Source: a virus (lineage: Duplodnaviria > Heunggongvirae > Uroviricota > Caudoviricetes). From it: 25,537 bases of DNA. The position numbers were made by a program. Positions within the stretch are counted from its first letter, which is position 1. Each line of letters begins with the position of its first letter. This document shows positions 24,001 to 25,537 of the stretch, piece after piece. Location: IMG/VR virus record IMGVR_UViG_2698536454_000004. One strand, 5' to 3'.

Positions 24001-25537
24001 GCACAAAACAGAACCCAAAATCGTCGCGCCTGGCTACACAGATGAGGAAATTTATGAGTGGATGACAAAGAAGCTGGCAGCTATAAACCAGCTTCGTGAA
24101 GTGCTGTCTTATCGACAGGAAACAATAGACTCCTTAAAAAAACTGGATCAGGAAATCACGGTTTTATCACAGGATGTTACTTTAGATATTGTGCAGACAA
24201 ATTAGGATCCCATTCATTTTCGTCAAAATCATCAAAGTGATGAATTTGTGATCTCCAGTCTCGATAATCTAAAAATTTCTGGGCGGTTACGCTTATTTTA
24301 TCAAGTGTGAGTTCATCCTGAATTGAAAGAAGAAGTTCATCAAATTTCATCTCATTAATCTGTTTTGGCATCCAGTGATGCTTCATCAGAATAAGGTGAA
24401 CCAGAGCCTTTTTCCCATTCAACTGATTATAGGGAGTGCCGAATTTCTTCCGGTGCTCATGTAAGACAAGGTCCAAAAGAGTAAGTAATGTTGCCCTTGA
24501 TTCAACTTTGCTTATTTCGACTGATGACACTACCCCACTGATTTCAATGCCCCGATACTTTCCAACATTTTCACAGTGGGATTTGTACAGCGTATAGATA
24601 TTACCGGACATTTCTTTTCCTTTTGCGTTGTTGGGGATAACCAGATTAACCGAATCCTTGTTGTTGGGGAATAACCAGGTCCACCTCGCCTGATGTGGCT
24701 AAAAGCAGGCACATAACAGCTAAGTATTTTCAACCAGAGAGAATCCTTAGCGTTGTGGTGAATGCGGCTCAGCGCACGCGGGTTAAGGTTGAGGCTGACA
24801 GTCGACCTTCTGTGGATACCCACCCGCCTGGTGTGCAACCTTCGCCAGGCACCGGGAGGCACCCGGCACCACAACTTTATGCTGTGTGTAGTCTTGGCGG
24901 TACCAGCTTGTACCCTTGCTTCCGGCTGGTACCGTCCTTTTTACAAAACAGAGAAGAGCATCACCGGACGACGGGCTCATAACCCAATCCATCCGGGCGG
25001 CAGTCACCGCAGGTGTTCTTCTCTGTTTTGTGGAGAAACTAACCGACCTTGCAGGGTCGATATGATGAGGAGCAGCAAAATGGCTAGCGAACGCAGTACT
25101 GATGTGCAGGCATTTATCGGGGAGCTGGACGGCGGCGTATTTGAAACCAAAATCGGCGCAGTTCTCAGTGAAGTCGCTTCCGGTGTGATGAACACGAAAA
25201 CCAAAGGTAAGGTCTCGCTCAACCTGGAAATCGAACCGTTTGATGAGAACCGAGTGAAAATCAAACACAAACTCTCATATGTTCGCCCGACTAACCGCGG
25301 GAAAATTTCCGAAGAAGACACCACCGAAACGCCGATGTATGTCAATCGCGGTGGTCGCCTGACTATTCTGCAGGAAGACCAGGGACAGTTACTGACTCTT
25401 GCCGGTGAACCTGACGGAAAACTCCGCGCAGCAGGTCGTTAATATCGTTTTTAATTAACTGATTATTTATCTCATCACTGAATATCTTTATATAGTGAGG
25501 ACTTATTATGTCTCAGAACTTAGACGCAACCGCAATT

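Follow-up and report, generated by a model that had tools for sequence, protein, structure and literature searches.

Lambdoid prophages carry exclusion genes beside the immunity region that are expressed in the lysogen, such as rexAB and sieB of lambda and sieB-esc of P22, and SieB/Esc includes a self-protection product. Pairs of a defence gene and a small inhibitor gene have been described in other prophages. In Staphylococcus phage 80alpha, the small gene ith-1 (66 aa) is convergent with tha-1 (301 aa), and the two share 64 nt at their 3' ends. Because they are transcribed head-on, the expression states of tha and ith are mutually exclusive; on induction Tha is shut down both by this opposing transcription and by the Ith protein, which prevents autoimmunity (PMC11087260). 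In phage phi80, the lysogen-expressed defence gene taiEcA interrupts the Q operon in the opposite orientation, next to the small counter-defence gene atiEcA, an arrangement described as a 'noncontiguous operon'; late transcription lowers Tai, and one tested pair, AtiSalB-TaiSalB, interacts (PMC11364771). The Listeria TerI/anti-TerI system follows the same defence-plus-inhibitor logic.

A gene pair with related architecture is present in the window, a 25,537-nt stretch of DNA (IMG/VR record IMGVR_UViG_2698536454_000004) that represents an SfIV-type lambdoid prophage of E. coli. The region from 23700 to 25100 is 100% identical to E. coli D6, in which intD and a tRNA-Arg gene adjoin the prophage. 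Shigella phage SfIV and several coliphages carry the region as well, and at least 406 of 5426 complete E. coli genomes have it intact. Matches on plasmids fall mainly in ~40-kb records or large replicons. The immunity region contains cro (22827-23027, minus strand, identified by domain search) and the cI repressor gene (23125-23751, plus strand), whose product has HTH and peptidase S24 domains. The 25.5-kb window contains five copies of the hexamer ACTAAG, always in one of two clusters flanking cI: two lie between cro and cI (23039-23104; for example ACTAAGATTACTTAGT at 23088) and three just after cI, at 23767, 23780, and 23816 (cluster 23767-23832). The two clusters probably serve as OR and OL operators in this immunity type. 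A consensus scan also places a PL-like promoter, TTGCCA-17-TAGATT, at 23805-23833 on the plus strand, and we read the whole plus-strand segment from 23765 to 23835, with its ACTAAG half-sites, as a putative OL/PL region that would fire rightwards into gene A, the first ORF downstream, and against gene B.

Gene A (23999..24205, plus strand) was identified by ORF call and profile match; it codes for an acidic 68-residue protein of PHROG 1744, a family with no function recorded. Gene B (24177..24611, minus strand, ATG start) codes for 144 residues and converges on A, such that the 3' ends of the two ORFs overlap by 29 nt (24177-24205). Its GC content is 0.379, compared with 0.512 for the window, 0.431 for cI, and 0.512 for yfdP. 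The first-pass annotation had described B as an AT-rich moron opposed to a presumed PL operon and overlapping the 3' end of a plus-strand 68-codon ORF by 29 nt; the coordinates, base composition, and overlap are all borne out, and the ACTAAG clusters and PL-like promoter support the opposition to PL. The statement that B resembles no described family does not stand. B scores 157.8 bits over residues 4-144 against NCBIfam NF033230 ("ECs1072 family phage-associated protein"; entry type 'hypoth_equivalog', curated cut-off 70 bits), and 302 bits over residues 1-144 against PHROG 5286. B is a full-length member of both families, and both are uncharacterised: the entries hold names only, with PHROG 5286 listed as 'unknown function', and contain neither the partner gene nor the orientation rule described below.

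The likeness to Tha/Ith lies in the small gene that converges on the effector gene and overlaps its 3' end, at 68 aa, 144 aa, and 29 nt here versus an overlap of 64 nt in 80alpha. The two systems differ in host phylum, in the effector, which is a 301-aa HEPN RNase in the case of Tha whereas B has 144 residues and is not a HEPN protein, and in transcription, since in 80alpha it is ith that has a promoter to itself, tha being transcribed together with cI, whereas here B presumably has a separate promoter and A belongs to the lytic operon. Comparisons by hhalign with Tha-1 and Ith-1 return probabilities of 0.6% (B against Tha-1) and 0.2%. Tai/Ati resembles the window, and all three genomic contexts described below, in having an antisense gene within a lytic operon and an adjacent small gene oriented with that operon. 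However, the phi80 genes are divergent with overlapping 5' ends whereas A and B converge, and Tai is ~200 aa compared with 144 aa for B. The B profile aligns to phi80 gp52 with an hhalign probability of 0.7%, and BLASTP of A against gp51 gives no alignment, gp52 and gp51 having been equated by us with orf63 and orf64 from position and size. The presumed TaiEcA, phi80 gp52 (L103:4366-4980, minus strand), contains an Rx4H string, SMRNDLAHNPS. B has no detectable homology to any nuclease and none to Tha or Tai, and therefore the analogy is one of architecture only. The rexAB and sieB genes share the position beside cI and PL, but B matches no annotated exclusion family, has no membrane segments, and is transcribed against cI.

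Divergent homologues of B (21-72% identity) were collected from a Serratia genome, viral contigs, metagenomes, and phage records, and provide evidence that A and B form a unit. A convergent, 3'-overlapping pair is shared by ~25 of these loci, namely L004, L085-L088, L090, L095, L097-L099, 12 of 13 metagenome loci, Salmonella phage ST64B, and Klebsiella phage KPP5665-2, and a small ORF converges on B with a 3' overlap in every examined locus except one weak partial match. The overlaps are longer than in the window, ranging from 71 to 269 nt. At the N-terminus, the partner ORFs of the ~25 loci carry P-[YHK]-[IF]-x-x-[PGA]-G...[EQ]-L-x-x-W-[LM], in which P6 and W21 are invariant; a coiled-coil-like helix comes next. 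The A protein of the window aligns with these partners (pairwise E 1e-5 to the Serratia partner), and its sequence finds only coiled-coil noise in the PDB. Both genes are under purifying selection, with dN/dS of 0.16-0.28 for A outside the overlap and 0.17-0.37 for B, and dN of A and dN of B rise together across pairs.

The pair is found in three contexts. First, in the window, L090, L095, and L097 it follows cI and PL. Second, in L088 and L098 it follows cro on the PR transcript. Third, in L004, L085, L087, ST64B, and KPP5665-2 it lies between Q and the lysis genes, downstream of PR'. In all three, A lies near the lytic promoter and is read in the direction of the lytic operon, which B opposes, an orientation rule that rests on three independent contexts and would arise by chance about 1 time in 8. 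The best explanation of these observations is that A/B is a conserved mobile two-gene cassette of lambdoid prophages, in which B is the presumed lysogen-expressed effector and A the presumed lytic-phase inhibitor of B. The first-pass annotation had raised the idea that the 68-residue neighbour or antisense transcription neutralises B, and of its proposals, this one is strengthened most, by the conservation of the two genes as a unit across ~25 loci and further by the Tha/Ith-like geometry.

The overlap shows additional features in individual loci. At L004:4380-4400 and L085:3395-3415, the palindrome TGGGATCCCA encodes both the conserved W-D-P of B and a W-D-P near the C-terminus of A; it is read on both strands in several loci, and in the window the A stop codon falls just before it (24205-24216). 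In L098 and L099 the overlap extends to ~270 nt, and conserved A residues are encoded opposite B. Annotation of the pair is uneven among phage records. At ~2340-2780 of ST64B (L101) and of KPP5665-2 (L102) the B homologue is unannotated and only the partner is called (sb50 and GP45, respectively), while in SfIV (L100, 2238-2582) the ORF gp35, which is probably spurious, overlaps both the sRNA region and the 5' end of B.

That several phage records leave B unannotated, and that neither gene has a recorded function, might suggest a selfish or decaying remnant without current function. Such a remnant is very unlikely given the purifying selection on both genes, the number of intact copies in complete E. 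coli genomes, the confidently predicted fold of B, and the breadth of its family: an exhaustive profile search recovers 76 relatives (clusters at 50% identity), and the full-length members are nearly all of 143-161 aa, with a few reaching ~175 aa. In the family alignment, R54, L64, G66, A69, H72, and W134 are near-invariant and define the motif HR-x9-L-x-G-xx-AL-x-H-xxxx-K-xx-W together with a C-terminal E-W-x-P. An AlphaFold model built with this alignment is all-helical (pLDDT 91.8, pTM 0.85), and B is predicted to be a cytoplasmic, all-alpha protein (GRAVY -0.47). Foldseek searches of the model against BFVD and the PDB return nothing at E < 0.8, and the B sequence matches nothing in Pfam, PADLOC, or the PDB. 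B is thus predicted to adopt a new helical fold with few conserved polar residues (R54, H72, W134).

These data bear on the proposal of the first-pass annotation that B is a HEPN-type RNase toxin in which RDWRSQIHH, at residues 117-125, is catalytic. The string does fit the Rx4-6H signature, and Tha, which has the same gene geometry in a prophage, is a HEPN RNase. However, the string is not above chance expectation, because an Rx4-6H match arises in 57% of shuffles of B, and only 4 of 58 relatives keep one at this segment; in close relatives R117 is replaced by C or K, R120 by A or E, and HH by LS. The sole recurrent Rx4H in the family lies elsewhere, at residues 67-72, in 11 of the 58. Foldseek reaches HEPN toxins only at E > 5 with TM ~0.2, so that the HEPN helical bundle is not recovered; HEPN profiles of Pfam and PADLOC do not match B of the window, those of Pfam match none of the 58 relatives, and the hhalign result with Tha-1 agrees. 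Motif conservation, chance rate, fold, and profiles together lead us to reject the candidate, and we give a catalytic RDWRSQIHH next to no credence.

The leader of B contains the two ~18-nt direct repeats reported earlier just upstream of the ribosome-binding site (24626..24685, minus strand; sense CTGGTTAT(T)CCCCAACAAC). The copies, TTGTTGGGGATAACCAG (24628-24644) and TTGTTGGGGAATAACCAG (24662-24679), are one indel apart with a period of 34 nt, and ~0.08 such matches are expected by chance. Each begins with the CTGGTTAT element and ends near AAGGA, and the simplest reading of the repeats is that the leader underwent a local duplication. Two other interpretations were rejected: Tandem Repeats Finder calls no array in the leader, which excludes a tandem array upstream of B, and the leader, which is C/A-rich and unstructured, folds worse than its shuffles (z +1.95), which excludes a structured 5' leader formed by the repeats. 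A related element, CTGGTTAC, precedes B in L090, L095, and L097. The minus-strand leader from 24616 to 24668 is also rich in A-R-N triplets (AACAACAAG, AACAACGCAAAAGGAAAAGAA), a candidate translational enhancer or distal-face site for Hfq.

In one B subfamily, a block located 20-45 nt ahead of the start codon is conserved (consensus TCTGATATCGTTAATTTGCCAA), with no conservation farther upstream. The invariant positions of the block match an extended -10 element, TG-n-TA-n-n-G-T, which argues for a promoter of B's own in that subfamily. The version in the window, CTGGTTATCCCC, is degenerate, and a sigma-70 consensus scan of the minus strand upstream of B finds no convincing promoter there. A candidate regulatory motif common to the upstream regions of A and B, TCCCCA[A/T]CAACAAG, was dropped because its score lies within the range of shuffles and it is not shared in ten other loci; a third repeat-like copy, upstream of A, is within chance expectation.

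Two hairpins are positioned to end transcripts of B. The first-pass annotation had assigned the gene its own hairpin and U6 terminator, and a hairpin search with folding locates this element at 23915..23940 on the minus strand, with an 8-bp stem followed by U6 (TTTTTTGT). The hairpin (23940..23921) folds at -11.5 kcal/mol on the minus strand with the U run after it, compared with -7.5 kcal/mol and no U run for the same 23921-23940 stretch on the plus strand, and therefore PL transcripts should pass through. It is predicted to stop minus-strand transcripts before OL/PL and cI. The terminator of the earlier description is thus retained, but it lies 237 nt past the B stop codon, beyond the whole of A, and a second, stronger hairpin that had been missed is nearer. 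A B transcript reaching the U6 terminator would therefore be antisense to the whole of A. The nearer hairpin, followed by UUCUUUGU, lies within the coding region of A (24070..24095, minus strand; -15.6 kcal/mol, z -4.1). L085, L086, and L087 have strong terminators at the equivalent position, and the 24070..24095 hairpin is probably the first stop for the B transcript.

The roles of the two genes might instead be reversed, with A harming the host if leaked from PL, PR, or PR', and B acting as a constitutive, antitoxin-like safety catch of the lysogen. Reversed roles would explain the conserved pairing, co-divergence, and orientation equally well, and a B mRNA whose 3' end is antisense to all of A would suppress leaky A too. 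Nevertheless, all three studied precedents assign inhibition to the small gene; the few invariant polar residues of an active-site or ligand-site type (R54, H72, W134) are in B and not in A, while the invariant P6 and W21 and the coiled-coil-like helix of A are typical of a binding partner. We regard the reversal as improbable.

Our leading reading, to which we give somewhat less than even weight, is that B is a lysogen-expressed effector, probably anti-phage, that is switched off during lytic growth by A and by convergent transcription. In the lysogen, B would be transcribed from its own promoter, opposing the silent lytic operon, and its transcript would end at the 24070 and 23921 hairpins, so that its 3' part would be antisense to A. 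Once the lytic promoter (PL in the window, PR or PR' elsewhere) becomes active, A would be among the earliest proteins made and lytic transcription would also run convergently into B. A, probably by binding B, together with transcriptional interference, would then turn B off and leave the prophage's own lytic growth unharmed. We infer the timing of expression, the A-B binding, and the anti-phage activity of B; its most likely targets would be superinfecting phages. Because many of these phages make A only from the Q-dependent late operon, B may act on, or be triggered by, a step after late-gene expression.

Expression data are available from one source. In uninduced E. coli O157 Sakai the ECs1072 transcript drops ~4-fold on entry into stationary phase, in a microarray that is possibly not strand-specific and for an ECs1072 that may differ from the protein of the window (PMC2241611, Table 2). 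A literature search on ECs1072 and the protein accessions returned this one table only (PMC2241611), and the transcript suggests that B is expressed in the lysogen. The variation with growth phase is also what might be expected of a lysogenic-conversion or regulatory protein that acts on host physiology and has no anti-phage role, in which case A and convergent transcription would just silence B. Lambda bor, like B, lies antisense to a lytic operon. Searches with PADLOC found no known defence genes co-located with the cassette, and no model in PADLOC-DB v2.0.0, a 2023 library covering systems described up to then, is matched by A or B of the window, by their neighbours, or by A and B of L004, L090, and L098. 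A dedicated, co-evolving protein partner would be hard to explain for a harmless host-directed factor, however, and the cassette occupies known sites of exclusion and defence cargo (beside cI, and between Q and the lysis genes). A purely host-directed B is conceivable but, on this balance, unlikely.

The site itself also speaks for the leading reading. The first-pass annotation had pointed to the cI-proximal region as a site of exclusion and abortive-infection genes, and related E. coli prophages do hold other small genes there: the slot between the repressor and PL on one side and the sRNA and yfdP on the other is variable. Alternatives include a 171-aa hypothetical protein (WP_000559916; L104:580-1095, minus strand) and genes at L105:554-1186, L107:920-1195, and L108:899-1386, all uncharacterised, among them an opposed 61-aa/81-aa pair and a ClpX-type zinc-finger protein with a 91-aa protein. 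Some of these genes are also antisense to PL. The neighbours in L004, L086, and L087 and the alternative E. coli cargo match no known defence model; a TerB fragment and ClpX-type zinc fingers are the sole matches among them.

Directly upstream of B and divergent from it is an STnc100-like sRNA (24722-24945, plus strand), which matches the full length of the Rfam model at 43.4 bits (E 1e-7), below its gathering score of 47, and ends in a long-loop terminator, CGGTACCAGC...GCTGGTACCG+TCCTTTTT. PGAP places a 'frameshifted hypothetical protein' over 24722-24945, and the SfIV record has ORFs there. STnc100 is related to the prophage sRNA PasD according to a 2026 preprint. Between the sRNA terminator and the yfdP ribosome-binding site lies a 25-nt inverted repeat (24943-24967 and 25007-25031, 84% complementary, 39-nt spacer), which, in the PL transcript, could form a hairpin for processing or attenuation.

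Taken as a whole, the A/B arrangement appears to add a new variant, without homology to the known ones, to the recently described 'defence plus antisense self-immunity' design. A more ambitious form of the leading reading, which we put forward tentatively, is that A/B is a new, widespread defence and self-immunity system of enterobacterial lambdoid prophages in which B, with its new fold, uses a site formed by R54, H72, and W134 and either targets a late phage function or is triggered by one, A is the cognate inhibitor, and the overlap acts as a toggle between lysogeny and lysis; it would then be a third independent case of the Tha/Ith and Tai/Ati type. Even if this is wrong, a false HEPN call has been corrected and a conserved overlapping gene pair recorded. 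The cassette is common, occurring in E. coli, Shigella phage SfIV, Salmonella phage ST64B, and Klebsiella phages. If the proposal is true, a fold without a solved relative would acquire a function, and an unrelated protein family would join a design principle described only since 2024, in which a prophage weapon against rival phages is disarmed on lytic entry by a small, overlapping antisense gene.
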